From: a virus | Taxonomy: Duplodnaviria; Heunggongvirae; Uroviricota; Caudoviricetes | Reading direction: 5' to 3' (one strand) | Length of the DNA: 16,379 nt | Virus record (IMG/VR): IMGVR_UViG_2602041863_000003 | Location: 1 to 16,379 of that record | In this document: in pieces, positions 1-16,274 of the stretch | How positions within the stretch are numbered: the first letter of the stretch is position 1 | Layout: every line of letters starts with the position of its first letter | Made by a program: the position numbers and the translations under genes | The notes under the pieces: model-generated | Databases searched by the model: none | What the model was told of the DNA's origin: nothing | The model's input: only the letters and a program-made list of their open reading frames with translations

Positions 1-52
1 GAAATCCCTCGCCACCTCTGATGTGTCAGGCATCCTCAACGCACCCGCACTT

Positions 53-78
53 AACCCGCTTCGGCGGGTTTTTCGTCG
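53..78 (+). terminator. Intrinsic terminator-like hairpin (aacccgcttcggcgggttt) followed by T-run
   Basis: GC stem cccgc/gcggg with ttcg loop then ttttt; same 18-nt core recurs at 901-918. Confidence 0.5.
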
Positions 79-199
79 CATAATGAGGTTGTAATTTTAG
101 CTACCATTAGACTATCCTAAGGATCTCAAACAGATCTATTTTGCATCAAATTTGGTGCATGGCTTTGCCAATAATCGGAAAACAAAAGGACTCATTAGT

Positions 200-379
200 A
201 TGAGCTGCCCACTCAAAAAACACACGCGGTTGAGTATTCCGCCTCGCGATAAAAGCGTTGTGGCAGTCCCTCGCCCAGCGATTGATGAAAACTGCGCACA
301 TCGTGAACAAGTGAAAAATGCTTTTGATTTCGGTTTTTCTCGTTATGAGAAAGCCATGGAAGAACTTTCAAAAGTGTAA
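200..379 (+). CDS. Small protein upstream of Doc-family toxin; candidate antitoxin
   Basis: ORF track 152..379 begins at TTG; internal ATG at 200 (MSCPLKKH...) has AAGGA about 10 nt upstream; stop is 19 nt before the toxin ATG; antitoxin role is inferred from position only. Confidence 0.4.
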   Translation: MSCPLKKHTRLSIPPRDKSVVAVPRPAIDENCAHREQVKNAFDFGFSRYEKAMEELSKV

Positions 380-397
380 TGATGGGTATTGTGCTCT

Positions 398-883
398 ATG
401 GCTGAGATTGTTGAAGGAGTGCATTACCTTACGGTTGATGATCTTGTTGAAATCAATCGTTCCCTAATTGAATTACAGACGCCAGATGAGCCCGTTGGTG
501 TTCTGAGTCCAGATAACTTAAGTTCTTCTCAGGCCCGTCCCAGCATGGTTCGATGGTATGAACAGACTAATGACATGTTTGTACTGGCATCGGTATTGAT
601 TGAAAGTCTGATTCAGAATCATCCGTTTGCTAATGCGAACAAACGAACAGCTATGATGGCTGGTTACGTCTTCTTGTTGTTGAATGGCTATGAGTTAACA
701 GCACCAGGCGATGAAATCGTGGAAATGGCAGAGGGACTGGCCTGCAAAACCTATACTCGAGAAGATCTCGAGAACTGGTTGTGTTATTGGTCTCGCGCGT
801 ATGACAGCCGGGAATTATGTAAAACAGGCGCAACTATTGTTTTGTATGAAACTATCAAGCTTAAAATAGAACAGCAAAACTAA
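398..883 (+). CDS. Doc/Fic-family toxin (death-on-curing-like)
   Basis: Translation contains HPFANANKRTA, matching the Doc-type HxFx(D/N)(A/G)NKR motif; ATG at 398 inside the ORF-track 389 TTG start. Confidence 0.75.
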   Translation: MAEIVEGVHYLTVDDLVEINRSLIELQTPDEPVGVLSPDNLSSSQARPSMVRWYEQTNDMFVLASVLIESLIQNHPFANANKRTAMMAGYVFLLLNGYELTAPGDEIVEMAEGLACKTYTREDLENWLCYWSRAYDSRELCKTGATIVLYETIKLKIEQQN

Positions 884-896
884 AGGTGCTTCCAAT

Positions 897-928
897 GAAA
901 ACCCGCTTCGGCGGGTTTTGTTTTTTCC
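897..928 (+). terminator. Intrinsic terminator after Doc-like gene
   Basis: aaaacccgcttcggcgggttttgttttttcc: hairpin plus T-run 14 nt after the stop codon. Confidence 0.6.
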
Positions 929-998
929 TGGCATTCTGGTTTACAATTCGCACGCCAGCCTGAACAACTGGCACCTGCTGCGCCAGCAGAGACAACCG

Positions 999-1271
999 AT
1001 GGCGCACAAAAACAAATTTCACAATTCTGATACCGACCTTGCCATCCGGCACGGGCGGCGTTCACACGCATTTAAAACCGACTGGTACCAACACCCACCA
1101 TGTACTGAAGAACAGGCCGAATGGCTAATTCATAACTACCGCAGGCGCGGATACGAGGTTAAGAAAGCCCTCAGCCTCGATTATCGTCACTGGATAATCT
1201 ATGTCAGGCTCCCTTATTCCGAACGCCCACCGCGTCCGTCCCGCACATTCCAGCAACGCATCTGGAGGTAA
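999..1271 (+). CDS. Hypothetical small basic phage protein (nin region)
   Basis: Part of ORF 918..1271; internal ATG at 999; stop TAA 1269-1271 sits 1 nt before GTG 1273 of the next gene; no motif recognised. Confidence 0.35.
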   Translation: MAHKNKFHNSDTDLAIRHGRRSHAFKTDWYQHPPCTEEQAEWLIHNYRRRGYEVKKALSLDYRHWIIYVRLPYSERPPRPSRTFQQRIWR

Positions 1272-1272
1272 C

Positions 1273-2322
1273 GTGCGGGTATTACTTCGACCTGTTCCGG
1301 TACCGGAACTTGGGCTGGTGGTGCTAAAACCGGGCCGTGAATCCATGCAGGTATTTCATAACCCTCGAGTTCTGGTGGAGCCGGAACCGAAAAGCATGCA
1401 TGGTCTGCCGTCCGGAGTCGTTCCTGCTGTTCGCCAGCCGCTGGCGGAGGATAAATCATTACTGCCATTTTTCAGCGATGAGCGGGTGATTCGTGCTGCT
1501 GGTGGTGCTGGTGCATTGTCTGACTGGCTGTTACGCCACGTTAAATCCTGCCAGTGGCCTCATGGTGACTATCATCACAGTGAAACCGTTATTCACCGTT
1601 ATGGTACTGGCGCAATGGTGTTGTGCTGGTACTGCGACAACCAGCTGCGTGACCAGACTTCTGAATCACTCGGGCAGCTTGCTCACCAAAACCTGTCAGC
1701 ATGGATGATTGATGTCATCCGCCACGCAATGAATGGCACGCAGGAGCGGGAATTATCGCTGGCTGAATTATCCTGGTGGGCGGTCTGCAATCAGGTGGCG
1801 GACGCGCTACCAGAGGCAGCATTACGTCGTTCTCTGGGGTTACGTGCGGAAAAAATTCGCTCAGTATACCGCGAGAGCGACATCGTGCCGGGAGAGCAGA
1901 CCGCCACCAGCATGCTGAAGCAGCGCACAAAAAATCTTGCGCCGCTGCCTCACGCCCACCAGCAACAGAACCCACCACAGGAAAAGACGGTGGTCAGCAT
2001 TGCCGTTGATCCTGAGTCTCCGGAATCTTTCATGAAACGACCTAAACGTCGCCGCTGGGTTAACGAGAAATACACACGCTGGGTGAAGACACAGCCGTGT
2101 GCGTGTTGTGGTAAGCCAGCCGACGATCCCCATCACCTGATTGGTCATGGTCAGGGCGGAATGGGGACAAAATCTCACGATATTTTCACGCTACCGCTGT
2201 GTCGGGGGCATCACAACGAGCTTCATGCGGATCCGCTGGCGTTCGAAGAAAAGCATGGTTCTCAGGTTGATTTAATTTTTCGTTTTCTTGATCACGCCTT
2301 TGCAACTGGCGTGCTTGGGTAA
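1273..2322 (+). CDS. Phage nin-region protein with C-terminal Cys/His-rich HNH-like zinc-binding domain (NinG/YbcO-like)
   Basis: ORF 1201..2322; GGAGG at 1264-1268 then in-frame GTG at 1273 (spacing short, start uncertain; ATG at 1201 or 1345 possible); C-terminus PCACCGKPADDPHHLIGHGQGGMGTKSHD...PLCRGHHNELH; lies directly upstream of rusA as ybcO/ninG do. Confidence 0.55.
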   Translation: MRVLLRPVPVPELGLVVLKPGRESMQVFHNPRVLVEPEPKSMHGLPSGVVPAVRQPLAEDKSLLPFFSDERVIRAAGGAGALSDWLLRHVKSCQWPHGDYHHSETVIHRYGTGAMVLCWYCDNQLRDQTSESLGQLAHQNLSAWMIDVIRHAMNGTQERELSLAELSWWAVCNQVADALPEAALRRSLGLRAEKIRSVYRESDIVPGEQTATSMLKQRTKNLAPLPHAHQQQNPPQEKTVVSIAVDPESPESFMKRPKRRRWVNEKYTRWVKTQPCACCGKPADDPHHLIGHGQGGMGTKSHDIFTLPLCRGHHNELHADPLAFEEKHGSQVDLIFRFLDHAFATGVLG

Positions 2323-2334
2323 AAGAGGTGACTG

Positions 2335-2694
2335 ATGCTCATAGATTTGGTTTTACCTTACCCGCCGACGGTGAACACTTACTGGCGACGCCGTGGCAGC
2401 ACATATTTTATCTCGGAGGAGGGAAAGCGTTATCGCCGGGCTGTGGCGCTTATTGTTCGCCAGCAGCGGCTGAAATTAAACCTGTCCGGAAGGCTGGCGA
2501 TAAAGGTGATTGCAGAGCCACCGGATAAACGTCGTCGTGACCTGGACAATATCCTGAAAGCACCACTGGATGCACTGACACATGCGGGGTTGCTTATCGA
2601 CGACGAGCAGTTTGATGAAATTAATATTGTGCGCGGTCAGCTTGTTCCTGGTGGGCGGTTGGGGATAAAAATCACAGAACTGGAGTGCGCATGA
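2335..2694 (+). CDS. rusA: Crossover junction endodeoxyribonuclease RusA (Holliday junction resolvase)
   Basis: 119 aa; LPYPPTVNTYW...RRRDLDNILKAPLDALT...GGRLGIKITE resembles RusA as recalled; RBS AAGAGGTG upstream. Confidence 0.85.
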   Translation: MLIDLVLPYPPTVNTYWRRRGSTYFISEEGKRYRRAVALIVRQQRLKLNLSGRLAIKVIAEPPDKRRRDLDNILKAPLDALTHAGLLIDDEQFDEINIVRGQLVPGGRLGIKITELECA

Positions 2695-3380
2695 ATAACC
2701 AGTATTTACAGTTTGTTCGTGAGCAACTCATGATTGCCACCGCCGATTTGAGTGGATCAACAAAAGGGCAGCTTGAAGCCTGGCAGGAGAATGCCATGTT
2801 CGATACAGGGCGTTACAGGCGAAAAAAAATCCGGTACCGCGATGAAGTGACTGGAAAAATGATAACGCGGGATAATCCACCAATCCCGGGAAAGCAATCG
2901 CTGGCGAAAGGTTCATCAATTGCCCTGGTCAGTCCGGTTGAGTTTTCGACATCATCATGGCGACGCGCCGTTCTGTCTCTTGAAGAGCATCAGAAGGCGT
3001 GGGTGCTGTGGGTATACAGTGAAAATCCGAGTTGGGATTATCAGGTGGTCATTGCGAAATGGGCGTGGGATAAGTTTCAGGTGCATTTTGGCACCAGAAA
3101 AATTACAGGGAAAACGCTTGAGCGTCTGAAGAAATTAATCTGGCTGGCGGCGCAGGATGTCAGGGGGAGGATTACTGGGCGTGACGTCTACCAGCGACAG
3201 GAACTTGCCAGACTGTGTGGAGTTAAGCCTGACAACTGGAGCCATAATTATGCGAACTACTGGCGTGAGATGTGCGACATTTTTAAGAAACTCGATACAG
3301 AATCCTTGATTTGCACCGTGAAAATGAGATCGCAACAAAAAGCGACCTTTTCACGACGAGATATTGCAAAAGTCAATTAA
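2691..3380 (+). CDS. Late-gene antitermination protein Q (lambdoid Q family)
   Basis: ATG at 2691 overlaps rusA stop (ATGA); 229 aa; position after rusA and before a terminator hairpin is the canonical Q locus; similarity to Q is from recall. Confidence 0.75.
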   Translation: MNNQYLQFVREQLMIATADLSGSTKGQLEAWQENAMFDTGRYRRKKIRYRDEVTGKMITRDNPPIPGKQSLAKGSSIALVSPVEFSTSSWRRAVLSLEEHQKAWVLWVYSENPSWDYQVVIAKWAWDKFQVHFGTRKITGKTLERLKKLIWLAAQDVRGRITGRDVYQRQELARLCGVKPDNWSHNYANYWREMCDIFKKLDTESLICTVKMRSQQKATFSRRDIAKVN

Positions 3381-3426
3381 ATCGCATACATTTTATGTAA
3401 ATGTGATATTTTGCCGTATAGTGTGT

Positions 3427-3451
3427 AAACCCGCTTAAATGCGGGTTTTTT
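3427..3451 (+). terminator. Intrinsic terminator hairpin downstream of Q (candidate tR'-like)
   Basis: aaacccgcttaaatgcgggtttttt: perfect stem cccgc/gcggg, T6 tail; possible -10 TATAGT at 3417-3422 (weak). Confidence 0.55.
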
Positions 3452-3524
3452 GCTTAACTCTGTGGACCTTTTTATCTGTAGTTGTAAGATATGGATATTC
3501 TTACAATTTAGGTCGGTGAGCTTA

Positions 3525-4289
3525 ATGGAAGAACAGCACGGTAATTACTTTATAAAACGAATTCAGTTGATTGGAAGGGGTGCATTTGGCTTTGTTGAAC
3601 ACGTTAAGGTTTACAACCTCAACAAGGGTGAATGTGGGGATTATGCTAGAAAGGTTTTAGCCCCCGAAAAACCAGAGCTTTTGGCGCAAATAGAGCAGTT
3701 TAGAAGGCGTTTTAAAAGGGAGGTCGTGTATCAATCACATTGCGTACATAGCAATATTGTTCCTATTTATTTGTGCGATTTGTTTGCCGAGAATCCATGG
3801 TTCATTATGGATAAAGCAGAATGTGATCTTGAGCACGAAATAACGAACAACCTTCTTACAACAGATCAAAAAATTTCAATAGTGAAAATGGTATTAGATG
3901 GTGTAGCTCACATCCATGCGAAAGGCTATTTACACAGAGATATAAAACCATTTAATGTCTTGCGATTTAGCGACGGAACATACAAGGTGTCTGATTTTGG
4001 TCTGGTAAAAGATACAAATCCCGAAGGGGATACCACTAAATTGACCGAGATCGGTACCCGTATGGGAAGTACAAGATATATGGCTCCCGAGATTTTATAT
4101 AATGCCGAGTATTCAGTTAAGACTGATGTTTATGCGGTGGGGCGGTTAATTGAGGACTTAAATTTAGATGATAAAAAAATAAAGCCTATCATAGCGAAGT
4201 GTACCAGGATGGATAAAGATGATAGATATCAGACAATAGATGATGTGGCGTTTGATTTTGTGCATTCTTTTTTAAGGAGTGAGTCATGA
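3525..4289 (+). CDS. Eukaryotic-like (Hanks-type) Ser/Thr protein kinase, minimal catalytic domain only
   Basis: Gly-rich loop IGRGAFGFV, candidate beta3 Lys in YARKV, HRDIKPFN catalytic loop, DFG (VSDFGL), APE (YMAPE); ATG 3525 with GGTGAG upstream; ORF-track start 3450 is a TTG inside the terminator. Confidence 0.85.
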   Translation: MEEQHGNYFIKRIQLIGRGAFGFVEHVKVYNLNKGECGDYARKVLAPEKPELLAQIEQFRRRFKREVVYQSHCVHSNIVPIYLCDLFAENPWFIMDKAECDLEHEITNNLLTTDQKISIVKMVLDGVAHIHAKGYLHRDIKPFNVLRFSDGTYKVSDFGLVKDTNPEGDTTKLTEIGTRMGSTRYMAPEILYNAEYSVKTDVYAVGRLIEDLNLDDKKIKPIIAKCTRMDKDDRYQTIDDVAFDFVHSFLRSES

Positions 4290-5029
4290 TTCAGCTGATA
4301 GCGACTTCATCATTCTCGTATCCAAAAGAACCAGGTAGGGTCAACGAAGATTCATTGCTTCCTCCCAAAATTGTAGGGGATGGCATCTTATTTGCCGTAG
4401 CTGATGGTGTAGGTTCATACACTGGTGCCAGTCAGGCTTCATCAATGGCAATTGCTGAACTTTCAGCATTGACAAGCTTATCTTTTGACACAGTTCCGGA
4501 TGTATTTGATGAAGTTAAGCGAAAGGTTATGTCGTTAGCTGATGTTAATGATGAGTTCGATAAAGCTGCTACTACACTTACGTTTTGTTATGTTTGTGAT
4601 AGCGGAATTATTATTGGTCATATTGGTGATTGTCGTTTGTATTGCATTGGAGAGAAGAAAGCATACCAATTGACGAAGGACGATACCAGGCATCAGATGC
4701 TAATTGATCAGAATATTTTTAAACCCAGAGATTTGAAGGATAAACCGGGCAAAAATATCTTAACGACGGCTATAGCCTCAAATGTTGATATGGAATACGA
4801 CTGTGATTTTATCACATGGAAAGATTTACCTAGTATTAACGGGGTATATCATCTGTGTATCATGTCTGATGGGGTTCATAACGTTTGGGAAAAACGCCCC
4901 AGATTTACATCAAATACGATGAGTAATAGTCAGAAGTTTTCTAATGGCATTTTGCGTCGTATAGAGAGAGCCGGACCTGATGATGACTTTTCTTTAGTAA
5001 GTATAATGGTGCGTGTGACGTCAGATTAG
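4286..5029 (+). CDS. PP2C-family Ser/Thr protein phosphatase
   Basis: NEDS, AVADGVGS, IGDCR, IMSDGVHN and C-terminal DDD residues match PP2C metal-binding motifs; AAGGAG RBS 6 nt upstream; ATG overlaps kinase stop (ATGA). Confidence 0.8.
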   Translation: MIQLIATSSFSYPKEPGRVNEDSLLPPKIVGDGILFAVADGVGSYTGASQASSMAIAELSALTSLSFDTVPDVFDEVKRKVMSLADVNDEFDKAATTLTFCYVCDSGIIIGHIGDCRLYCIGEKKAYQLTKDDTRHQMLIDQNIFKPRDLKDKPGKNILTTAIASNVDMEYDCDFITWKDLPSINGVYHLCIMSDGVHNVWEKRPRFTSNTMSNSQKFSNGILRRIERAGPDDDFSLVSIMVRVTSD

Positions 5030-5101
5030 TTGTATAAACTCAGTAGGGAATGCTAATTTCACATACAACATAGTTAAAGAAAACTTAATTTTAATGTAAA
5101 A

Positions 5102-5126
5102 AGGCTGCCCTCAGGCGGTCTTTTTA
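5102..5126 (+). terminator. Terminator-like imperfect hairpin plus T-run after phosphatase gene
   Basis: aggctgccctcaggcggtcttttt; 7-bp stem with two G-U pairs, A-run upstream and T-run downstream. Confidence 0.4.
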
Positions 5127-5248
5127 TGCTCGAAAATTGATGCAGTACGTTAAACGCGCTGGTGGTTGCGAATACCGGTCTTTCAGCTTGCTGGCTTTTT
5201 AGACAAGAGTTATTGGTATGTCACGTTAACCAGAAAAGGGAAAAAGAC

Positions 5249-5446
5249 ATGCTAAAACAGCAGGATATGACCGAAACCGCCAGAGTGGTGTTTAATGAAT
5301 TAAGCGTCACCGAACCGGCGACCGTCGGGGAAATTGCGCAGAATACTTACCTTTCACGCGAACGCTGCCAGTTAATCCTGACCCAGCTTGTTATGGCGGG
5401 TCTGGCAGATTATCAGTTCGGTTGTTACAGACGCCTTCTGCAGTGA
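5249..5446 (+). CDS. Small winged-helix-like DNA-binding protein (hypothetical regulator)
   Basis: 65 aa; ATG 5249 with AAGGGA upstream; VGEIAQNTYLSRERCQLILTQLVMAGL looks like a wHTH recognition segment. Confidence 0.45.
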   Translation: MLKQQDMTETARVVFNELSVTEPATVGEIAQNTYLSRERCQLILTQLVMAGLADYQFGCYRRLLQ

Positions 5447-5596
5447 AGGCTTTTTAATTTGTGGTAATGGGCGGCTGGTGGGTGTTAGCGGCACCTGCCA
5501 GCCATCTGCTCATGCGTTGGGGTCACAAGCAAACCTCAGGCCCATCTGCTTTGCGCAAAAGCAGTATGAGCCTATCAGAGAAGTGCTTATTGATCT

Positions 5597-6646
5597 ATGA
5601 CTAATACTGTAAAAATATCCAGTTGTGAGTTAATCAACGCTGATTGCCTGAAATTTATCCAGACCTTACCGGAAAACTCTGTCGATCTGATAGTCACAGA
5701 CCCGCCATACTTTAAAGTGAAGCCCGAGGGCTGGGATAACCAGTGGGAGGGCGACGATGATTACCTGAAATGGCTGGACCAGTGTCTGGCGCAGTTCTGG
5801 CGGGTACTGAAGCCTGCCGGAAGTCTTTACCTGTTCTGTGGTCATCGCCTGGCATCTGACACCGAAATCATGATGCGTGAGCGCTTTAATGTGCTGAACC
5901 ACATTATCTGGGCGAAGCCGTCCGGACGCTGGAACGGGTGCAATAAGGAAAGTCTGCGGGCGTATTTTCCGGCAACAGAGCGCATTCTGTTTGCAGAACA
6001 TTATCAGGGACCGTATCGCCCGAAAGATGATGGCTATGTGGCACAGGGGCGCGAGCTAAAACAGCACGTCATGGCCCCGCTGATTTCTTACTTTCGTGAT
6101 GCGCGTAAATCACTGGGAATAACGTCAAAACAGATAGCGGAAGCCACCGGAAAGAAAAACATGGCTTCGCACTGGTTTGGTACCAGTCAGTGGCAGTTAC
6201 CGAACGAGGGTGATTACAACAAATTGCAGGCGTTGTTTGCGCGTGTTGCGGCAGAAAAACATCAGCGCGGGGAACTGGAAAAGCCACACCACCAGCTGGT
6301 CAGCACATACAGTGAGCTGAACCGGCAGTACACGGAACTGCTGAGTGAATATAAAAATTTGCGGCGGTATTTCGGTGTGACGGCGCAGGTTCCGTACACC
6401 GATGTCTGGACGCATAAACCGGTGCAGTACTATCCAGGAAAACATCCGTGCGAAAAACCGGCAGAAATGCTGCAGCAGATAATCAACGCGAGCAGTCGTC
6501 CGGGAGACCTGGTTGCAGATTTTTTTATGGGTTCAGGTTCAACGGTAAAAGCGGCGATGGCACTGGGGCGTTGTGCGATTGGTGTTGAGCTGGAGACAGG
6601 ACGTTTTGAACAGACAGTCAGGGAAGTTCAGGATTTAATCGTTTGA
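5597..6646 (+). CDS. DNA methyltransferase, beta-class (N6-adenine or N4-cytosine), no adjacent restriction gene
   Basis: VTDPPYF (motif IV) near N-terminus and DFFMGSGST (motif I, AdoMet binding) near C-terminus: beta-class motif order. Confidence 0.85.
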   Translation: MTNTVKISSCELINADCLKFIQTLPENSVDLIVTDPPYFKVKPEGWDNQWEGDDDYLKWLDQCLAQFWRVLKPAGSLYLFCGHRLASDTEIMMRERFNVLNHIIWAKPSGRWNGCNKESLRAYFPATERILFAEHYQGPYRPKDDGYVAQGRELKQHVMAPLISYFRDARKSLGITSKQIAEATGKKNMASHWFGTSQWQLPNEGDYNKLQALFARVAAEKHQRGELEKPHHQLVSTYSELNRQYTELLSEYKNLRRYFGVTAQVPYTDVWTHKPVQYYPGKHPCEKPAEMLQQIINASSRPGDLVADFFMGSGSTVKAAMALGRCAIGVELETGRFEQTVREVQDLIV

Positions 6647-6695
6647 AACGGATGAGATTGCAGAATTAATTACGCACCATTATTATTCTGCTCCC

Positions 6696-6771
6696 GGCCC
6701 TTTAGCTCAGTGGTGAGAGCGAGCGACTCATAATCGCCAGGTCGCTGGTTCAAATCCAGCAAGGGCCACCA
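6696..6771 (+). tRNA. tRNA-Ile2-like (anticodon CAU; Met/Ile-lysidine type)
   Basis: Cloverleaf traced by hand: acceptor ggccctt/aagggcc, anticodon loop cucauaa, T-loop ttcaaat, CCA encoded; close to E. coli ileX as recalled. Confidence 0.85.
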
Positions 6772-6772
6772 A

Positions 6773-6849
6773 CCGTCACCAGTTCATCAGGAAAGAGCGT
6801 CAACCCTTTAAGTTGAGTGTGCGAGGTTCGAGTCCTCGGTGGCGGGCCA
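6773..6849 (+). tRNA. Atypical tRNA-like gene, anticodon read as UUU, with C8 and C33
   Basis: Acceptor ccgtcac/gtggcgg (one G-U), D-arm with G18G19, anticodon stem tcaac/gttga, loop ccuuuaa, T-arm cgagg-ttcgagt-cctcg, CCA encoded; departs from near-universal U8 and U33. Confidence 0.45.
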
Positions 6850-6851
6850 GT

Positions 6852-6927
<76 letters not shown>

Positions 6928-6930
6928 TAT

Positions 6931-7005
<75 letters not shown>

Positions 7006-7282
7006 GCATTTGAAATAAGCCTTATTGTATTGCAGCACTGGCGTATTTTTTATTACGTGGGAGCAGGTTGTTTTAAGAGACATTCTGTTCTCTGGCTATG
7101 ATTTGAGGCCAGGTTAGCCTCAGTGCTGATTTTTTTTACGACAGCAGAATGGTGCATTATCGGTGGAGATTTTGTATTTCCTGGCAGGGTCGGTAATGCA
7201 TCATTCTGATGTTGTAAGCATCGCTCAGAATAACGTTGAGATTAATCGCGTACTAAGCAAAACTTGGAAATACATCCTTAAC

Positions 7283-7305
7283 CGCCGCACCAGGCGGTTT
7301 TTTTT
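7283..7305 (+). terminator. Intrinsic terminator (ccgcc-gcacca-ggcgg + T8)
   Basis: Perfect 5-bp GC stem followed by eight T residues. Confidence 0.6.
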
Positions 7306-7429
7306 ATTCATTTTTTTCATGGCTCGCTACGGCGGGCCTTTTTCATATCCTCGCCACACCCGGCGCATATCACATCAAATAACGCCGCGCAAAAGGCATC
7401 TGCGGGCGCCTTTGACGGGGTGTTTTTAC

Positions 7430-7451
7430 GGGCCGCTGGTGGCCCTTTTTT
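7430..7451 (+). terminator. Terminator-like hairpin directly upstream of the lysis cassette RBS
   Basis: gggcc-gctggt-ggccc followed by T6; ends 7 nt before AGGAG RBS of the 7471 gene. Confidence 0.5.
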
Positions 7452-7470
7452 ATTTACAGGAGAAAAACGT

Positions 7471-7860
7471 ATGTCTGAACCCTTATCTGGTTCCGGCACG
7501 GCTGCGGCGCTCGGTGGGGCGACGGTATTCGGGCTGTTTACCGGAACGGATTTCGGGATTGTGTTTGGTGCGTTCGCCGGGGCGTTATTTGTGGCAACGA
7601 TGCCGCAGGCGCTTTCAATCTGGCGTGTGGTGGCGCATTTTTTGGTGTCGTTTATCGTCGGCGTGCTGGGGGCGCGCGTGCTGTCAGCCTGGATTGCATC
7701 AAAAACAGGGTATGACGGTACATCGGCAGATGCGCTGTGTGCGGTGCTGGTATCGGTGGTGTCGGTGAAGATTCTGTCGTTCATCCACCAGCAGGATATT
7801 GCATCGCTGGTGTCCGGTGTGTTCTCCCGTCTGCGGGGTGGAGGCGGTAATGTTAAGTAA
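7471..7860 (+). CDS. Membrane protein, putative holin (lysis cassette gene 1)
   Basis: 129 aa, AGGAG RBS 8 nt upstream; Gly/Ala-rich hydrophobic segments consistent with 3 TM helices; first gene of block ending in endolysin. Confidence 0.55.
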   Translation: MSEPLSGSGTAAALGGATVFGLFTGTDFGIVFGAFAGALFVATMPQALSIWRVVAHFLVSFIVGVLGARVLSAWIASKTGYDGTSADALCAVLVSVVSVKILSFIHQQDIASLVSGVFSRLRGGGGNVK

Positions 7861-8125
7861 CCTTCCCGGATTACTGAATGTGGTGTTAAGCACGGTTATC
7901 GTGCTGACGCTCTTTTTTTATCGTCGTGGTGATTCCAGACATAAACCGCTGATGTCGTGGCTGGCCTGGCTGCTGATGCTGCTGTATGCCTTTGCGCCAC
8001 TTTGTTATCTGTGTGGTCGCTTTCCACCCGGTAACTGGCTGGTCGTCCTGATTAACCTGGTGTTCTGCGTGCTGGTGATACGAGCACGCGGGAACGTATC
8101 AAAAATCCTTTCATTACGGAGGTGA
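7850..8125 (+). CDS. Small membrane protein, putative holin/antiholin-type lysis protein (lysis cassette gene 2)
   Basis: ATG 7850 with GGAGG 5 nt upstream, overlaps previous stop; 91 aa with 2-3 hydrophobic helices and basic C-terminus. Confidence 0.5.
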   Translation: MLSNLPGLLNVVLSTVIVLTLFFYRRGDSRHKPLMSWLAWLLMLLYAFAPLCYLCGRFPPGNWLVVLINLVFCVLVIRARGNVSKILSLRR

Positions 8126-8127
8126 GT

Positions 8128-8505
8128 ATGCCCGGTAAATTCAGATTCAGTCGTCGAAGTGAGAAAAATCTGGAGGGCGTCAAACCACAGCTGGTTGCTG
8201 TTGTTCGCCGTGCGCTGGAGCTGACGGAGGTTGACTTCGGTATTACGGAAGGCCTGCGCAGTAAGTATCGCCAGAAGCAGCTGGTCGCGGAAGGGAAAAG
8301 CCAGACCATGAACAGCCGCCACCTGACCGGTGATGCGGTGGATGTTGTGGCCTACATTGGTAGCCAGGTGTCATGGGACTGGCCTCTGTACGAGAAAATC
8401 GCGCAGGCATTTAAGCAGGCTGCCGCAGAGCTGGGAACTGCCATCGAATGGGGCGGGGACTGGAAAACACTGAAAGACGGGCCTCACTTTCAGTTGAAGC
8501 GCTAA
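8128..8505 (+). CDS. Endolysin, peptidase M15 family (L-alanyl-D-glutamate peptidase-like)
   Basis: SRHLTGDAVDV (SxHxxGxAxD zinc-binding motif) and DGPHFQ (DxxH); GGAGG RBS; 125 aa. Confidence 0.8.
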   Translation: MPGKFRFSRRSEKNLEGVKPQLVAVVRRALELTEVDFGITEGLRSKYRQKQLVAEGKSQTMNSRHLTGDAVDVVAYIGSQVSWDWPLYEKIAQAFKQAAAELGTAIEWGGDWKTLKDGPHFQLKR

Positions 8506-8519
8506 TAACCAGGTGGTTT

Positions 8520-8702
8520 ATGAGCCGAAAACACTGGACACACAGAATGCCGCGAACGGCGGCGAAATGGGCACTGGTAGCGATACTGGTGCCTTTTTTC
8601 CTGGTGGGATGCGTTAGCCTGGATAAGGTGCGCCAGCTTTTCGATACGGCCTCGCAGGTCTGCGAAATTGTCGAAAGTGCCAGGCAGTGTATGCAGAACT
8701 GA
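8520..8702 (+). CDS. Small lipoprotein, possible lysis accessory/spanin-like protein
   Basis: Basic N-terminus, hydrophobic stretch WALVAILVPFFLVG and lipobox LVGC; AGGTGG RBS; lies where Rz/Rz1 sit in lambda; not proline-rich like typical o-spanins. Confidence 0.4.
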   Translation: MSRKHWTHRMPRTAAKWALVAILVPFFLVGCVSLDKVRQLFDTASQVCEIVESARQCMQN

Positions 8703-8789
8703 TCGCCTGTAAGAGCAGAATATTGTTGAATCTAAATTTACTTTGAACAGTGGCCCGGATGGAAAGGGCATCTAAATAGGAGCAGAAAA

Positions 8790-8999
8790 ATGTTAACTGT
8801 AAAAGTCATGTCTCAAAATGGTGGGGAAGAGCTCCATTGCGGGCGTAGCATTGGCTATCATCCAGAGCAGCGGAGTATTGCCGTATCGGGAAAGGATGGG
8901 AAAGTCATTCTGAAAGATGGAGATATTGCTTATGTAATGAACCAAAACGCTCAAATAATATCTGTTTATCGGCCCAATAATAGTCAGAAAAACATTTGA
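8790..8999 (+). CDS. Hypothetical small protein (69 aa)
   Basis: AGGAG RBS 7 nt upstream of ATG; AT-rich by eye; no motif recognised. Confidence 0.5.
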   Translation: MLTVKVMSQNGGEELHCGRSIGYHPEQRSIAVSGKDGKVILKDGDIAYVMNQNAQIISVYRPNNSQKNI

Positions 9000-9122
9000 A
9001 TTTCGCAAGTCCAAAGTTCAGTGGTGATCGTTATCAACTAATTGAAATAACAAGCTTATGTTTGTGTAATTGGTGATATAGCATGTTAATGCTGAATATC
9101 AGCGTCAACATGGAGTTATACA

Positions 9123-9338
9123 ATGGTTTTTAAACACTATTACGTGAACAAAAATGCTCAGAGCAATGGCGATCATGAGGTGCATGCTGAGGAATGTTCA
9201 TATCTTCCTTCTGTAGCTAACCGCGATTACCTTGGTTACTATAGTGATTGTTCTTCGGCGGTAACAGAGGCAAAGGCCAAAGGATATTCCCGGGTGAATG
9301 GTTGCTATTGGTGTGCCAATAAGTGCCACACGTCTTAA
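9123..9338 (+). CDS. Hypothetical small Cys-rich protein (71 aa)
   Basis: GGAG RBS; five Cys plus His (C..C, CxxCxxxC near C-terminus) suggest a metal-binding knuckle; terminator follows. Confidence 0.5.
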   Translation: MVFKHYYVNKNAQSNGDHEVHAEECSYLPSVANRDYLGYYSDCSSAVTEAKAKGYSRVNGCYWCANKCHTS

Positions 9339-9357
9339 TCAATTGTCAATAAACCAT

Positions 9358-9381
9358 AAAGGCCGCTCTGCGGCCTTTTTC
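9358..9381 (+). terminator. Intrinsic terminator (ggccgc-tct-gcggcc + T5)
   Basis: Perfect 6-bp GC stem, 3-nt loop, T-run, 20 nt after stop of the 9123 gene. Confidence 0.65.
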
Positions 9382-9649
9382 ATGTTAAAAAAGATTGCGG
9401 CATTACAGCAGCCCTTCACACTGAGTGGCTGCGATAATGTGAGAAATAAAAAACCGGCAGGGGAAATCCATTGAAGATTTGCCGGTGGCAAAAAGATGGC
9501 CATGCTTTCAACCTTAGTCGCAGGGTTACGGAGTGCAACTACGAATGCTGCCGGTATATGGCTGAATGGCGTTTCAATGATGTACGTCATCTTATCTGTA
9601 AATGTTAATGATAAAAGCTCTCATTTGTGCGGGTCCTTCCGGTGGGGTG

Positions 9650-9680
9650 GCCTGCCACGGGGCGGGAGCGTCGCGGAAAA
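9650..9680 (+). other. Candidate cos site (cosN-like), with cosB-like region extending to the terminase small-subunit gene
   Basis: ccacggggcgggagcgtcgcgg resembles lambda cosN (acggggcggcgacctcgcgg) as recalled; sits about 170 bp upstream of the Nu1-like gene; downstream has ttcgtcat like the lambda cosB region. Confidence 0.5.
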
Positions 9681-9845
9681 AGGCTAGTTTTTGAAATTTT
9701 ATTCGTCATCACCATCACTGTAATTGATTGATATTACAGTGATTTTATTTTTATGGTGTCGATTCTGATTGTTTTTTGTTCATCACTAACACCGTTTGCC
9801 TAAAGTTGTTCGCAAGATGCATGTTTAAAACATTCTGGAGCGGGT

Positions 9846-10340
9846 ATGGATCGAGAGTTAAAAAATCTGACGCTGAATATCAGTCAACTGGCGGCATTGT
9901 CAGGTGTACATCGCCAGACTGCTGCGGCAAGGCTGCAAAATCTACCCGTTGCAGGGGGGCATGAAAGCAACCTCAAGCTTTATCGGGTGGTTGATATTGT
10001 GTCGGCATTTCTGGCATTACCACCGCCGGTTGCAGAAGGCGAAATGGACGCGCATGAGCGCAAAGCCTGGTATCAGTCTGAACGTGAGCGTCTTAAGTTC
10101 GAACAGGAAACGGCGCAACTCATTCCGGCCAGTGATGTCAGACGGGAGTTTGCCATCTGGGCAAAAGCGGTCGTGCAGGTGCTGGAGACATTACCGGATA
10201 TTCTTGAACGTGACTGCGGTCTGCAGCCTGCCGCTGTGAGCCGTGTTCAGTCCATTATTGATGATCTGCGCGATCAGATAGCCCTGCGGGTGACCGAAGC
10301 AGGTGCGGATGATGAGGAGGAATTACAGCAGGAGGAGTAA
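9846..10340 (+). CDS. Terminase small subunit (Nu1-like DNA packaging protein)
   Basis: N-terminal wHTH-like LTLNISQLAALSGVHRQTAAARL, acidic C-terminus; GGAG RBS; stop overlaps large-subunit ATG. Confidence 0.75.
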   Translation: MDRELKNLTLNISQLAALSGVHRQTAAARLQNLPVAGGHESNLKLYRVVDIVSAFLALPPPVAEGEMDAHERKAWYQSERERLKFEQETAQLIPASDVRREFAIWAKAVVQVLETLPDILERDCGLQPAAVSRVQSIIDDLRDQIALRVTEAGADDEEELQQEE

Positions 10341-12442
10341 TGCTGAATCAGGAAACCGCAAAGGCAGCACGAACCGATTCAGGTTATATCCTTCGCGCAC
10401 CGAGACGAATGCAGGTTGCTGATGCCGTTGCTCAATATATGCGGGTGCCCATGGGGGCCGGGAACTCAGTCCCGTGGGATCCGCTGGTGGCACCGTATGT
10501 TATTGAGCCGATGAACTGCCTGGCCTCGCGTGAATACGACGCAGTGATATTTGTTGGCCCGGCACGAACCGGCAAGACTATCGGCCTGATTGACGGCTGG
10601 GTGATTTACAACGTGATTTGCGATCCTGCGGATATGCTGATCATTCAGATGACGGAGGAAAAAGCCCGCGAACACTCCAAAAAACGACTTGCCAGAACGT
10701 TTCGCGTCAGCCCGGAAGTGGTCAGTCGCCTGAGTCCGAACAAAAATGACAACAACGTTTATGACAGAACATTCCTTGCTGGTAACTACCTGAAAATCGG
10801 CTGGCCGTCAGTCAATATCATGTCCTCATCAGATTATAAATGCGTCGCGCTGACGGATTATGACCGTTTTCCGGAAGATATTGATGGCGAGGGGGATGCT
10901 TTCTCTCTTGCCTCAAAACGTACCACAACATTTATGTCCAGTGGTATGACGCTGGTGGAGAGTTCCCCCGGCAGGGATGTGAAGGATGTGAAATGGCGAC
11001 GGACTTCACCGCATGAGGCTCCACCAACCACGGGGATCCTGTCGCTCTATAACCGTGGTGATCGCCGTCGCTGGTACTGGCCCTGTCCACACTGTGGTGA
11101 GTATTTTCAGCCCTGCGGCGATGTGGTTGCTGATTTCCGTGATATTGCCGATCCCGTGCTGGCAAGTGAGGCGGCTTATATTCAGTGTCCTTCCTGTTCA
11201 GGACGGATTATGCCTGAACAAAAACGTGAGCTGAACGGACGTGGGGTCTGGTTGCGGGATGGTGAATCCATCAATGCGGATGGCAGTCGTTATGGTGATC
11301 CCCGACGCTCACGTATTGCGTCATTCTGGATGGAGGGTCCGGCAGCTGCTTACCAGACACTCTCGCAACTCGTTTACAAACTGCTTACTGCAGAACAGGA
11401 ATACGAGACAACCGGAAGTGAAGAAACACTCAAGACGGTTATCAATACCGACTGGGGATTACCTTATCTTCCCCGTGCCAGCATGGAGCAACGAAAAAGT
11501 GAACTGCTTGAGCAGCGGGCAGAGCCAGTTCTTTCCCGCAGTGTGCCGGATGGCGTTAATTTCCTTGTGGCGACAGTGGATGTGCAGGCGGGACGTCATC
11601 GCCGTTTTGTGGTTCAGGTAACGGGCTATGGCAGCCGTGGCGAACGCTGGATTATTGATCGTTACAACATCACGCAGTCATTGCGCGGTGACAGCGACGG
11701 GGAGAGCCAGCGAATTGATCCGGCCAGCTACCCGGAAGACTGGGATGTCCTGCTGACGGATGTTTTTCATAAAAGCTGGCCGCTGGCCTCCGATCCTTCT
11801 CAACAAATGCGACTGATGGCAATGGCGGTGGACTCCGGCGGTGAAGACGGGGTCACTGATAATGCCTATAAATTCTGGCGTCGTTGCCGTCGTGATGGCC
11901 TTGGTAAACGTATTTACCTGTTTAAGGGTGACAGCATCCGGCGCGCAAAACTGATCAGCCGTACATTCCCTGATAACACCGGACGAACGGGCCGCCGGGC
12001 GCAGGCCGCAGGTGATGTGCCGCTCTGGCTTCTTCAGACGGATGCCCTGAAAGACCGGGTGAATAACGCGTTATGGCGTGACTCGCCAGGTCCCGGCTAT
12101 GTGCATTTCCCTGACTGGCTGGGGAGCTGGTTTTACGACGAACTGACGTATGAAGAGCGGAGCAGTGACGGGAAATGGAGTAAGCCGGGTCGCGGTGCCA
12201 ACGAAGCTTTTGACCTGATGGTGTATGCCGAGGCTCTGGTCATTCTGCATGGATACGAAAAGATCCGCTGGCCGGATGCACCGGAGTGGGCGAGCCGGGA
12301 AACCTGGCTGGAGTGTGTCCCGGACAGTACCGAACCGTCACCCTCACCGGAACCGGTATCCACGCCTGTTAAAAAACAAAAACGGAAGAAAACAGTAACT
12401 GACGATGTTAACCCCTGGCTGACTTCCGGAGGATGGTTATGA
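10340..12442 (+). CDS. Terminase large subunit (lambda gpA-like)
   Basis: 700 aa; Walker A VGPARTGKT; CPHCGEYF zinc-finger-like motif as in lambda gpA (CPHCGE). Confidence 0.9.
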   Translation: MLNQETAKAARTDSGYILRAPRRMQVADAVAQYMRVPMGAGNSVPWDPLVAPYVIEPMNCLASREYDAVIFVGPARTGKTIGLIDGWVIYNVICDPADMLIIQMTEEKAREHSKKRLARTFRVSPEVVSRLSPNKNDNNVYDRTFLAGNYLKIGWPSVNIMSSSDYKCVALTDYDRFPEDIDGEGDAFSLASKRTTTFMSSGMTLVESSPGRDVKDVKWRRTSPHEAPPTTGILSLYNRGDRRRWYWPCPHCGEYFQPCGDVVADFRDIADPVLASEAAYIQCPSCSGRIMPEQKRELNGRGVWLRDGESINADGSRYGDPRRSRIASFWMEGPAAAYQTLSQLVYKLLTAEQEYETTGSEETLKTVINTDWGLPYLPRASMEQRKSELLEQRAEPVLSRSVPDGVNFLVATVDVQAGRHRRFVVQVTGYGSRGERWIIDRYNITQSLRGDSDGESQRIDPASYPEDWDVLLTDVFHKSWPLASDPSQQMRLMAMAVDSGGEDGVTDNAYKFWRRCRRDGLGKRIYLFKGDSIRRAKLISRTFPDNTGRTGRRAQAAGDVPLWLLQTDALKDRVNNALWRDSPGPGYVHFPDWLGSWFYDELTYEERSSDGKWSKPGRGANEAFDLMVYAEALVILHGYEKIRWPDAPEWASRETWLECVPDSTEPSPSPEPVSTPVKKQKRKKTVTDDVNPWLTSGGWL

Positions 12443-12633
12443 ACCAGAATGATATCGAAGCCATGATTCAGCGTTATACGGAAGCTGAAATGGCGGTGCT
12501 GGACGGAAAATCCGTCACCTTTAATGGTCAGCAGATGACCATGGAAAACTTATCTGAGATCCGGCAGGGACGGCAGGAGTGGGAGCGCCGCCTTGCGGCT
12601 CTGATTACACGACGACGGGGGCATCCCGGGTAG
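12439..12633 (+). CDS. Head-tail joining protein W-like (gpW family)
   Basis: About 64 aa ending ...ITRRRGHPG, like the lambda gpW C-terminus (...RRRGPAGFYV) as recalled; start overlaps terminase stop (ATG at 12433 or 12439). Confidence 0.65.
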   Translation: MNQNDIEAMIQRYTEAEMAVLDGKSVTFNGQQMTMENLSEIRQGRQEWERRLAALITRRRGHPG

Positions 12634-12688
12634 CGGTGTTTATGATGCAGATATCAGTGGTGCATCGACATTAATCCTCCACTTCAAT

Positions 12689-13063
12689 ATGAATGCGGGG
12701 AGTTGCCCTGCTGTACAGTTCCGCGTGAATTACAGGAACGGCGGTATTTTTTATCGTTCAGCGCGTGATGGTTATGGCTTTGAAGCTAACTGGTCAGAGT
12801 TTTACACCACAACACGCAAACCCTCTGCGGGGGATGTTGGTGCATATACGCAGGCAGAATGTAACTCAAGGTTTATTACAGGTATTCGCCTTGGCGGTCT
12901 GTCATCTGTTCAGACATGGAAAGGCCCCGGCTGGTCTGACAGGTCAGGTTATGTCGTTACGGGTTCAGTTAACGGAAACCGTGATGAATTAATTGATACA
13001 ACTCAGGCAAGGCCAATTCAGTATTGCATTAATGGGACGTGGTATAACGCGGGGAGTATTTAA
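12689..13063 (+). pseudogene. Side tail fibre C-terminal fragment (5'-truncated remnant fused downstream of W)
   Basis: Lies immediately upstream of a tail-fibre assembly gene; the frame stays open upstream of ATG 12689 to at least 12623 with no start, indicating a truncated gene at a deletion junction. Confidence 0.55.
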
Positions 13064-13065
13064 CG

Positions 13066-13599
13066 ATGATGCACTTAAAAAACATTACTGCTGGCAACCC
13101 TAAAACAAAAGAGCAATACCAGCTAACAAAGCAATTTAACATCAAATGGCTTTATTCAGATGATGGAAAAAACTGGTATGAGGAACAAAAGAATTTCCAG
13201 CCAGACACTTTGAAAATGGTCTATGACCATAACGGCGTTATTATTTGTATTGAAAAGGATGTTTCAGCAATTAATCCAGAGGGTGCAAGCGTCGTTGAAT
13301 TACCTGATATTACAGCAAATCGCCGGGCTGATATTTCGGGGAAATGGATGTTCAAAGATGGCGTAGTGATAAAGCGAACTTATACCGAGGAAGAGCAGAG
13401 GCAACAAGCGGAAAATGAAAAGCAAAGCCTGTTGCAACTTGTCAGGGATAAAACCCAGCTATGGGACTCACAGCTACGGCTGGGCATCATTTCCGACGAG
13501 AATAAACAAAAATTAACCGAGTGGATGCTCTATGCGCAGAAAGTCGAATCTACAGACACCTCCAGCCTGCCAGTAACATTTCCAGAACAACCAGCATGA
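13066..13599 (+). CDS. tfa: Tail fibre assembly protein (Tfa)
   Basis: 177 aa; N-terminus MMHLKNITAGNP; C-terminal LTEWMLYAQKVESTDTSSLPVTFPEQPA typical of lambdoid/e14 Tfa. Confidence 0.8.
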   Translation: MMHLKNITAGNPKTKEQYQLTKQFNIKWLYSDDGKNWYEEQKNFQPDTLKMVYDHNGVIICIEKDVSAINPEGASVVELPDITANRRADISGKWMFKDGVVIKRTYTEEEQRQQAENEKQSLLQLVRDKTQLWDSQLRLGIISDENKQKLTEWMLYAQKVESTDTSSLPVTFPEQPA

Positions 13600-13627
13600 A
13601 ACAAGGCCCGATAGCGGGCCTTAATTT

Positions 13628-13981
13628 TTATTCAGGCTTTTGTGGCCATTCAGGATTTGCCGTATCCACACGGCTGACCAGAACACTGTAGCGTCCCCAT
13701 GCTTCCAGTCGTGTGCGTTCCTCGTCTGTTGCCATATTCAGCCTGACAGCGCGTTCCAGCGGCCGAATAACGCTTTCTGCTTCGGAAAGTAACGCGGCCT
13801 TTTGTGATTCGGCCTGTTGTTGCTGTTCGTCAGCCGTATAAATCCGTTTAACGACTGCGTCGTCCTTAAACATCCACTTTCCGGAATCATCAGCGCGGCG
13901 GTTGGCTGGTGAACTTTCGATAGTGCGAGTATTGAATGATTTCCAGCCGTTATCGATTTTATATAACTGCCGTGGAATTAT
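13628..13981 (-). pseudogene. Inverted tail fibre assembly gene fragment (tfa', 5'-truncated)
   Basis: Minus-strand translation ...[31 protein letters not shown]...[25 protein letters not shown] parallels the plus-strand Tfa ([31 protein letters not shown]); frame extends upstream of Met 13873 to an in-frame stop at 13982-13984 with no start. Confidence 0.7.
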
Positions 13982-14391
13982 TCAACACACAGGAAAAACG
14001 GAATAAGCTGAGAAAAAAGCGTGCTTTCCCAATCTGGGGCAAATCACGTCTGAATGACACCTGAAAATTTCCCGTCCGTTAAGTGTCCGCCCCGAGAGAA
14101 GTGGGAACCATAACACCCTGTCGGGACGCAGAAAGAAACAATACAACTTGCAGGGATATTTTCTTGATAAAGCATGAATGAGCAAGTGATTGTTTGTGCT
14201 GGCGGGGATTTTAGGAATTTTTCTTCATTTTAATGTATAGAATTCAAACAGCAAGCGAGAGAAAGTCTTTCTGCAAAACTAAAAGAGATTTCAATAAAAT
14301 CAAGCAGTTAAAAACACGGGAAAACGGTATAAAAAAGCATCTCAAAATCCTGTTTTTTCTTTTATGTACAATGTGTTATTGCATTTTTTAA

Positions 14392-14517
14392 AATCTATCA
14401 GTGTGGTACATGGATATCGATACCACCGCCAATTATAAGCTGGGCGGTGCACAGCAACACGATAGCGTACGCCTCGATCCGTGGGTGTTTATGTTCTCAG
14501 CAGGATATCGTTTTTAA
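14392..14517 (+). pseudogene. ompW: ompW 3'-terminal fragment (likely attR-side remnant of prophage insertion)
   Basis: Frame translates NLSVWYMDIDTTANYKLGGAQQHDSVRLDPWVFMFSAGYRF*, matching the OmpW C-terminus as recalled; in-frame stop at 14389-14391 just upstream; no upstream ompW sequence. Confidence 0.75.
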
Positions 14518-14530
14518 TTCCGCACAAAAA

Positions 14531-14553
14531 CGACCCCGTAATATACGGGGTCA
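14531..14553. terminator. Bidirectional terminator between ompW remnant and yciE
   Basis: gaccccgta-atat-acggggtc hairpin flanked by A-run and T-containing sequence, between convergent genes. Confidence 0.55.
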
Positions 14554-14576
14554 ATAAGGACATTGTATAAAGGGTA

Positions 14577-15083: not shown

Positions 15084-15128
15084 GAAAATATCCTCTTTAT
15101 AAAATGACTAAAAGTTAAAATTCATATT

Positions 15129-15629: not shown

Positions 15630-15714
15630 ATTTTTCTCCAGTGAAATCACTGCGAGCCATACGGCCCGCAGATGCAATTATCTTTATCAGCTGATATTAA
15701 TAATTAACGGTGAA

Positions 15715-16270: not shown

Positions 16271-16274
16271 GGGA

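Follow-up and report, generated by a model that had tools for sequence, protein, structure and literature searches.

A Doc-family toxin and its putative minimal antitoxin in a hairpin-bounded prophage cassette downstream of hokD

The Phd/Doc systems of phage P1 and of Salmonella Typhimurium are type II toxin-antitoxin (TA) pairs in which the toxin, Doc, phosphorylates EF-Tu at Thr382. Here we describe a relative of these modules in a stretch of viral DNA of 16,379 nucleotides (IMG/VR record IMGVR_UViG_2602041863_000003, positions 1 to 16,379, referred to below as the window; features lie on the plus strand unless stated otherwise). A gene for a Doc-family protein (doc, 398–883) is preceded in the window by a small gene, which we call X (200–379) and whose 59-residue product is a putative minimal antitoxin for Doc. 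The two genes occupy a segment of 847 bp (73–919) that ends in a terminator hairpin, that follows directly upon the terminator of the hokD gene, and that is missing in related phages, where one hairpin alone stands at the corresponding place. We think it likely that this segment is a self-contained type II TA cassette (a "moron") that works by the mechanism proposed below and is exchanged at its hairpin joints.

The well-studied Phd-Doc pair of Salmonella has a canonical Phd of 73 amino acids (PMC9207808). Fico and Mahillon (2006) listed homologs of Doc and TasB with ten groups of unrelated upstream open reading frames (ORFs), of which group 2 comprised loci from Pseudomonas aeruginosa PAO1, S. 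Typhi Ty2, and Yersinia pestis CO92, KIM, and 91001 (PMC1626090). The group 2 alignment in the supplement to that study ends in ...QVKNAFxFGFxRYEKAMEELSKV, which is the pattern of the C-terminal block of X and places X in the group, and the Y. pestis group 2 locus was recovered in our own searches (as locus L018) with an X-family ORF. A bioinformatic record of the pairing of X with Doc has thus existed since 2006, in the form of a listing without name, structure, or function in which the E. coli prophage copies, the linkage to hokD, and the hairpin-bounded cassette were not described. We found no experimental work on the pairing in the literature. Our additions are modest ones: the apparently obligate nature of the pairing, a Phd-like register of hot-spot residues in X, and a hairpin-bounded slot that the cassette shares with other cargoes.

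The initial annotation of the window, which was made from the sequence alone, had assigned ORF 398–883 to the Doc family on the basis of the motif HPFANANKR. Membership in the family is directly supported by profile searches, in which the product scored above the cut-offs of both Pfam Fic/DOC (PF02661; E-value 6.6e-12, 46.6 bits, cut-off 24) and NCBIfam TIGR01550 DOC_P1 (E-value 1.5e-37, 128.5 bits, cut-off 38.65) and also matched phrog_577, "Doc-like toxin" (E-value 1.8e-51). The catalytic motif (residues 75–83, encoded at 620–646) conforms to the Doc-type loop HxFx(D/N)(A/G)NKR rather than to its Fic counterpart, HxFx(D/E)GNGRxxR, and it aligns with HCFYNANKR in Protein Data Bank (PDB) entry 9vzc (E-value 4.7e-13) and with HIFNDANKR in P1 Doc (3k33; E-value 5.6e-5, in an alignment that spans residues 50–115 only). 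Residues H75, F77, N79, N81, K82, and R83 are invariant among 22 members of the subfamily. The locus resembles Phd/Doc of P1 and Salmonella Typhimurium in its toxin family, in its catalytic motif, in having a close, co-oriented upstream gene in the place of the antitoxin gene, and in being carried by a prophage. Unlike P1 Doc, which has 126 residues, the protein encoded in the window has 161, shows low identity to its P1 counterpart, and bears a C-terminal extension of about 30 residues relative to it. An AlphaFold model of Doc alone was all-helical and of low confidence (predicted local distance difference test score [pLDDT] 59). By the evidence of these comparisons, the product of ORF 398–883 appears to be an intact Doc-family toxin and is predicted to be an EF-Tu kinase. 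A copy of the cassette with a decayed toxin was seen at a chromosomal site near fliE and fliF (L009, 3188–3684), where doc is frameshifted into ORFs of 67 and 105 amino acids and X is intact, the antitoxin having been kept.

We turn now to gene X. The initial annotation had correctly pointed to an ORF of 59 codons upstream of doc and had given the gap as 19 nt; the distance from the stop codon of X to the ATG of doc is 18 nt. The two genes are co-oriented, and X has an AAGGA Shine-Dalgarno sequence 8 nt upstream. When X was compared with its homologs from Salmonella, metagenomes, and other E. coli lineages, the ratio of nonsynonymous to synonymous substitution rates (dN/dS) was 0.07–0.14, with dS saturated. 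Because a ratio of about 0.1 signifies purifying selection, we regard X as a real gene. Its product matched phrog_2208, a family of "unknown function" (PHROG 2208; E-value 6.9e-41), and had no match in Pfam or NCBIfam, even at E-values up to 1. Searches of the PDB with the single sequence and with a 25-sequence profile returned noise only (ribosomal S25 and TPPP, E-values above 0.4), and these candidates were discarded. A word-indexed search recovered 15 clusters only, and an exhaustive search with a hidden Markov model (HMM) recovered 38 representatives among 1.84 billion proteins, nearly all of them 47–62 residues in length. The X family is thus small and compact.

What company does X keep? 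We took 79 loci with relatives of the window Doc and read the ORF directly upstream of each doc gene. An X-family ORF was found there in every gammaproteobacterial locus examined (Doc identity 38–76%), with representatives in Serratia, Providencia, Yersinia pestis, Morganella, Xenorhabdus, Gilliamella, Pseudomonas, Halomonas, Kushneria, and Marinobacter. Measured against the inferred start of doc, the end of the upstream ORF lay anywhere between 60 nt ahead of it and a slight overlap with it, nearly always within 25 nt (about 33 loci). At least four unrelated genomic contexts carry the pair, among them a Salmonella TA island with ParDE and VapBC, the chromosomal site near fliE and fliF, and a phage in which it lies between the tail genes and the repressor gene. 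The arrangement is that of a generic type II system, with two small co-oriented genes, the antitoxin gene first, tight spacing, and pairing that persists across taxa and contexts. The coding status of X and its synteny with doc are directly supported by these findings, and the suggestion in the initial annotation that the upstream ORF is placed like an antitoxin gene is borne out by its conservation, by purifying selection, and by its constant association with the gammaproteobacterial Doc relatives examined. Judging from these loci, the pairing appears to be obligate across Gammaproteobacteria. Farther from the window Doc, its relatives in Firmicutes (Streptococcus and Listeria) and in a cyanobacterium have MazE-type partners (PF04014; E-values 6e-6 for the Listeria partner and 2e-7 for the cyanobacterial partner), whose last segment is a helix similar to that of X, and no PF04014 match was found in X or in diverged members of its family. 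Additional type II TA pairs adjoin X-doc in some genomes, namely a helix-turn-helix (HTH) protein with RelE/ParE in E. coli O104:H4 (L013, 3735–4313) and ParDE with VapBC in Salmonella (L005, 4728–6009); together with hok/sok, these neighbors make up small toxin-antitoxin clusters within prophages.

A structural model for X was obtained with AlphaFold from a 13-sequence alignment. Residues 1–33 are without regular structure in the model (pLDDT 62–70), and residues 34–57 form a helix that is predicted with high scores (pLDDT 91–93). Two blocks are conserved in the family, RLxIPPRDK near the N terminus and QVxNAFxFGFxRYEKAMEELSKV at the C terminus, and the most conserved part of the protein is the amphipathic C-terminal helix. 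As modeled, X has no room for the DNA-binding domain of Phd/YefM or of MazE. In type II systems it is usual for the antitoxin to be disordered and to fold when it binds (PMC4803016).

An alanine scan of residues 52–73 of Salmonella Phd has identified F56, I59, M60, H63, L67, and L70 as hot spots, with F56 and L70 designated as "gatekeeper" residues (PMC9207808). When 25 members of the X family were aligned with Phd from the C terminus, the family proved to be hydrophobic at five of the six positions in this end-anchored register, the exception being that of I59. Thus, the column of F56 is occupied by F in 17 of the 25 members (hydrophobic in 80%), that of M60 by F in 19 of the 25 (hydrophobic in 92%), that of H63 by Y (96%), that of L67 by M, Y, I, F, or L (100%), and that of L70 by an invariant L. 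Both X and Phd stop three residues after the last leucine, and hydrophobic occupancy is 0.78 in the Phd register as compared to 0.49 or less for any shift. The pattern suggests that the C-terminal helix of X may be a Phd-like neutralizing helix, whether by distant homology or by convergence. The initial annotation was right to see no Phd/YefM signature in X, and its idea of an unrelated antitoxin fold must be qualified insofar as the C-terminal helix is Phd-like in pattern. In other respects X is unlike Phd, having 59 residues instead of 73 and neither a PhdYeFM match in Pfam nor a folded N-terminal domain for DNA binding and dimerization. In joining a Doc toxin to a non-Phd antitoxin, the module resembles TasA/TasB and the MazE(AbrB)-Doc modules. 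The MazE-type partners of the Streptococcus, Listeria, and cyanobacterial Doc relatives align at their extreme C termini end-to-end with X; unlike them, X has no swapped-hairpin domain and no PF04014 match and is about 20 residues shorter.

Several considerations weigh against X being a Doc antitoxin with a Phd-like helix. The match to the hot-spot register was spotted post hoc, and in alignments of X with Phd the p-value was 0.36 for local alignment and 0.03 for end-anchored alignment. Comparison of the X family with the MazE-type partners by hhalign was confined to the last 21 columns (P 0.007, 5% probability), and an HMM of the C-terminal part of the X family recovered neither Phd nor the MazE-type partners from 5209 ORFs. 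Homology of X to Phd or to MazE-type antitoxins is, at the level of sequence, not statistically demonstrable. Given the 5% probability of that 21-column match, we treat an origin of X by internal deletion from a MazE-type antitoxin as unproven. Neither Doc nor X had a significant match to a PADLOC defense family. Finally, for the X-paired subfamily of Doc we infer, rather than observe, toxicity, neutralization, and phosphorylation of EF-Tu.

A further set of observations could be taken to mean that X is not an antitoxin at all but a small regulator or chaperone-like accessory protein, with Doc being non-toxic or controlled in some other way, for example by its C-terminal extension. X has no match to an antitoxin family and no recognizable DNA-binding domain, this Doc subfamily has its extra C-terminal segment of about 30 residues, and at one locus a homolog of X is followed by an ORF that is not doc. 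Such a role for X seems improbable to us in light of its strict synteny upstream of doc across Gammaproteobacteria with tight or overlapping spacing, the amphipathic C-terminal helix in the register of the Phd hot spots, the invariance of the catalytic residues of Doc, and the prevalence of disordered, fold-on-binding antitoxins in type II systems. X is, on the strength of sequence and model together, most likely a minimal Doc antitoxin. The locus without doc (L008, 853–1286) has a 62-residue homolog that is 66% identical to X, contains the same C-terminal block, and follows a phage tail-fiber gene; an unrelated ORF of 76 amino acids is in Doc's place, and the locus is either a decayed module or a case of X with a different partner.

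How expression of the module might be controlled was addressed by inspecting the leader, which runs from the left hairpin to the start codon of X and exists as two diverged types in E. coli. A relaxed hexamer scan revealed a candidate weak sigma-70 promoter, TTGTAA-N18-TATCCT (89–118; 8 of 12 matches), whose position is conserved in both leader types (TTGTGA-N18-TATGCT in type B). A repeat scan of the leader revealed an imperfect palindrome, TGCATCAAATTTGGTGCA (142–159), which is a candidate operator, and the Salmonella cassette has a symmetric sequence, TGCACTAATTTAGTGCA, at the equivalent place. As points on the other side, a default promoter scan reported nothing on the plus strand in 73–199, no strong promoter was found, and type B leaders have no palindrome, even though the X proteins that they precede are 90% identical. 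The last of these makes autoregulation by X doubtful. Nor, in contrast to Phd/Doc, can conditional cooperativity on an operator be assumed for X-Doc.

We next consider the borders of the cassette. An exact 20-mer, AACCCGCTTCGGCGGGTTTT, is found at 53–72 and again at 900–919, a spacing of 847 nt; no match of this kind was expected in 200 shuffles. The left copy together with its T run (53–77) is the intrinsic terminator of hokD, as judged by folding and by its conservation after hok. The right copy (898–929, with a 9-bp stem, a UUCG loop, and the T run TTTTGTTTTTT) was identified by folding and by a terminator scan as a terminator for the cassette, and it is also the candidate mosaic joint. Both copies have a UUCG tetraloop followed by a T run. 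The right hairpin folds with an energy of -18.1 kcal/mol (z -2.4) and is the only copy reported by a stringent terminator scan. The initial annotation had noted two hairpins with the same 18-nt core; the core is contained in the 20-mer and was correctly placed on the right (901–918), and on the left it lies at 54–71 rather than 55–72. The left hairpin is kept after hok in phage Evi and in the PPompW phages, both of which are without the cassette, and it also stands after hok in 32 IMG/VR contigs. It belongs to the hokD (hok/sok) mRNA, whether or not the cassette is present, and is not a cassette-specific bracket.

Comparison with these related phages, as the initial annotation had proposed, revealed a presence/absence polymorphism. 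In the alignment with phage Evi, which lacks the module, positions 1–72 of the window are joined directly to 920 onward by a single hairpin, with no bases extra or missing. Likewise, the PPompW phages have the order hok, one hairpin, and rem, and other enterotoxigenic E. coli (ETEC) strains (L004) have hok, hairpin, X-doc, hairpin, and rem. The hokD 3' flank (1–52), which was delimited from the coordinates of NZ_CP024232 and an Rfam sok match upstream, was counted 8963 times in 5426 complete E. coli genomes, of which 4404 contain it. The cassette is present in 125 of the 5426 genomes, at 129 places, all of them chromosomal, and it occupies about 1.4% of the 8963 sites that consist of the hok 3' end and the hairpin. 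It lies directly after hokD in every E. coli context inspected (these include O104:H4, O121:H19, O157:H7, and avian pathogenic E. coli [APEC] O1), and the sequences found downstream of it are of at least six different kinds. Throughout these six contexts the right hairpin is retained and homology stops right after its T run. The claim of a self-contained inserted module is upheld to the extent that cassette-free relatives have a single hairpin and the same cassette is found with at least six downstream contexts; it needs correction to the extent that the left hairpin is the hokD terminator and that the hairpin sequence is a generic one.

X-Doc is not the only cargo found at this place, which corresponds to position 72/73 of the window. 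Beyond the hok 3' end and its hairpin, the sequence continues in at least eight different ways. In one IMG/VR contig (L103, 2815–4680), the slot between two hairpins is occupied by RosmerTA (RmrT, E-value 4.6e-25; RmrA, E-value 6.2e-105), which is followed by a near-identical hairpin that differs at two positions and then by a rem-type continuation. In another (L170, 334–1701), the slot is occupied by genes for an HTH protein and a Peptidase_M78/ImmA-like protein, after which come the hairpin and a ydfU-type continuation. The continuations that follow the RosmerTA and HTH/M78 cargoes are also seen in cassette-free phages. Thus, three cargoes are found in two backgrounds, and in every case the junction falls at the hairpin. 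Both the presence/absence polymorphism and the alternative cargoes are matters of direct observation, and the pattern that they form in these sequences would be best explained by gain, loss, or exchange of cargoes by recombination at the hairpin. The hairpin-bounded slot shared by X-Doc, RosmerTA, and the M78-peptidase pair is a cassette hot spot, and as such is modestly new; we found in the literature no description of a doc gene adjoining hokD or of a hot spot at the hokD terminator.

Could the hairpins instead be independent copies of a popular terminator that have nothing to do with mobility? The cassette, or a block of hok, X, and doc, would then move solely by ordinary homologous recombination over long flanking homology, and the cassette-free phages would never have had the cassette or would have lost it by an unrelated deletion. 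Several observations speak for such an account and hence against exchange at the hairpin. As a terminator the 20-mer is generic and occurs in many phages that are unrelated: its exact sequence is present in at least 120 IMG/VR contigs, and of the 125 copies counted among the matches listed, 92 had unrelated flanks, 32 came after a hok 3' end, and 1 came after doc. Two Xenorhabdus genomes likewise have it after doc, with no hok present, and other X-doc contexts (L009, L010, and L005 from Salmonella) have different terminators or none. Because the sequence is generic, identity of the two hairpins by itself proves little; it could be due to convergence, and either ancestry or deletion could account for the empty site. 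We nonetheless consider independent terminators unlikely to be the explanation, though less so than the other alternatives weighed here, for the cassette-free allele is joined exactly at the single hairpin, three cargoes are bounded by hairpins on both sides and then followed by one or the other of two continuations of the cargo-free type, and six downstream contexts break exactly after the right hairpin. Exchange of the cassette at its hairpin joints therefore remains the reading that we favor.

Exact 20-nt direct repeats around the insert and the use of the same site by different cargoes also brought to mind a transposon- or integron-like element that inserts site-specifically with a 20-bp target duplication. 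We rejected this idea as very improbable, given that no transposase, integrase, or terminal inverted repeats were found within the 847 bp. In addition, the repeat is itself a functional terminator and generic elsewhere, and the second hairpin at the RosmerTA cargo differs at two positions, unlike a fresh target-site duplication.

The mechanism that we propose for the cassette is as follows. Doc, with its intact HxFxNANKR motif, would phosphorylate EF-Tu and thereby arrest translation. The co-transcribed X protein would neutralize Doc, its amphipathic helix (residues 34–57) folding into the Doc groove as residues 52–73 of Phd do, and the N-terminal segment, about 33 residues that are basic and rich in proline and include the conserved RLxIPPRDK block, would take the place of the globular DNA-binding domain of Phd/YefM or MazE. 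If synthesis of X were halted, by loss of the prophage or by shut-off by an infecting phage, Doc would be freed, and the cassette may in this way stabilize the prophage, abort infections, or both. The 20-nt terminator repeats would serve as joints at which cargoes are gained, lost, and moved between prophages by short-homology recombination. As with regulation of the module, we infer its biological role and the mode of recombination. A bolder version of this proposal, which we put forward tentatively, is that the hokD hairpin marks a dedicated slot in Qin/PPompW-type lambdoid prophages at which TA and anti-phage modules (X-Doc, RosmerTA, and HTH/M78 peptidase), each with the 20-nt hairpin at its 3' end, are swapped by short-homology recombination, for example by a phage recombinase, that X-Doc serves in abortive-infection defense rather than, or besides, addiction, and that X is a minimal, domain-less Doc antitoxin that acts through its Phd-like helix alone.

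It is instructive to compare the cassette with other modules of prophages. In the Qin prophage of E. coli K-12, relBE lies upstream of hokD in the same operon (relBEF). X-Doc resembles that arrangement in that a type II module adjoins hokD in a prophage region of the same kind, with rem and ydfU confirmed as neighbors; unlike relBE, X-Doc is of another family and lies downstream of the hokD terminator. In the manner of the morons of lambdoid phages (the concept of Hendrix and Juhala), the cassette is an extra unit with a terminator of its own that is present in some and absent from other collinear phages, and PHROGs files Doc-like toxins under "moron." As to a promoter of its own, one is weakly predicted. 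Finally, the slot resembles the defense hot spots of P2 and P4 prophages (Rousset 2022), where a single slot accommodates alternative TA or defense cargoes, RosmerTA among them. Unlike those hot spots, which are set by conserved phage core genes on their flanks, it is set by the hokD terminator and has the 20-nt hairpin at both borders.

The window is 100% identical to chromosomes of ETEC O6:H16. It starts 16 nt past the stop codon of hokD, inside the hok/sok locus: in the identical record NZ_CP024232, the hokD coding sequence ends at L001 position 5984, position 1 of the window is L001 position 6001, and a match to sok (Rfam RF01794, 121.6 bits) lies just upstream. The gene order is repressor, cro, replication genes, hokD, X, doc, a PHROG-1212 gene, DUF968 (YdfU), RusA, and Q, and the neighborhood of X-doc is therefore equivalent to the nin region. 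The prophage is a PPompW/Qin-like lambdoid element at ompW. We call it defective because at 7471–8847 a truncated holin gene directly abuts a partial tail-tip gene and the lysis, terminase, and head genes are missing. A fragment of ompW is found at about 12946–13071, followed by yciE, yciF, yciG, trpA, and trpB up to the end of the window.

Immediately after the Q antiterminator gene is a pair of genes for a Ser/Thr protein kinase and a PP2C phosphatase (3525–5029), which are followed by a DNA methyltransferase gene (5597–6646) and by genes for tRNA-Ile, tRNA-Lys, and tRNA-Gly (6696–7005). These genes make up a further accessory block in the region of the late promoter. On the minus strand, RefSeq has a 63-residue hypothetical protein (WP_001394303; 861–1052) that extends across the doc stop codon and the right hairpin; the annotation is probably spurious. 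The hokD 3' end and the hairpin (window 1–74; L001 5993–6074) are covered by a sub-threshold Rfam match to IsrK, a small RNA of Salmonella prophages. Sub-threshold Rfam matches over the hairpins (isrK, 27 bits versus a gathering threshold of 50; rsmX; RydC) were dismissed as terminator noise.

The distribution of X-Doc in Gammaproteobacteria is wide and takes in Y. pestis, Salmonella, and the E. coli lineages O104:H4, O121, O157, and ETEC, and X is still annotated as "hypothetical" and is missing from Pfam and NCBIfam. Its recognition would improve the annotation of TA systems. If our interpretation is right, X would be a naturally minimal inhibitor of Doc, with relevance to the design of peptides that mimic Phd. 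The hokD slot, for its part, may provide a simple, testable case of short terminators acting as joints between modules in phage mosaicism, and the sites of this kind, of which the E. coli genomes have 8963, are where new defense cargo might be sought.

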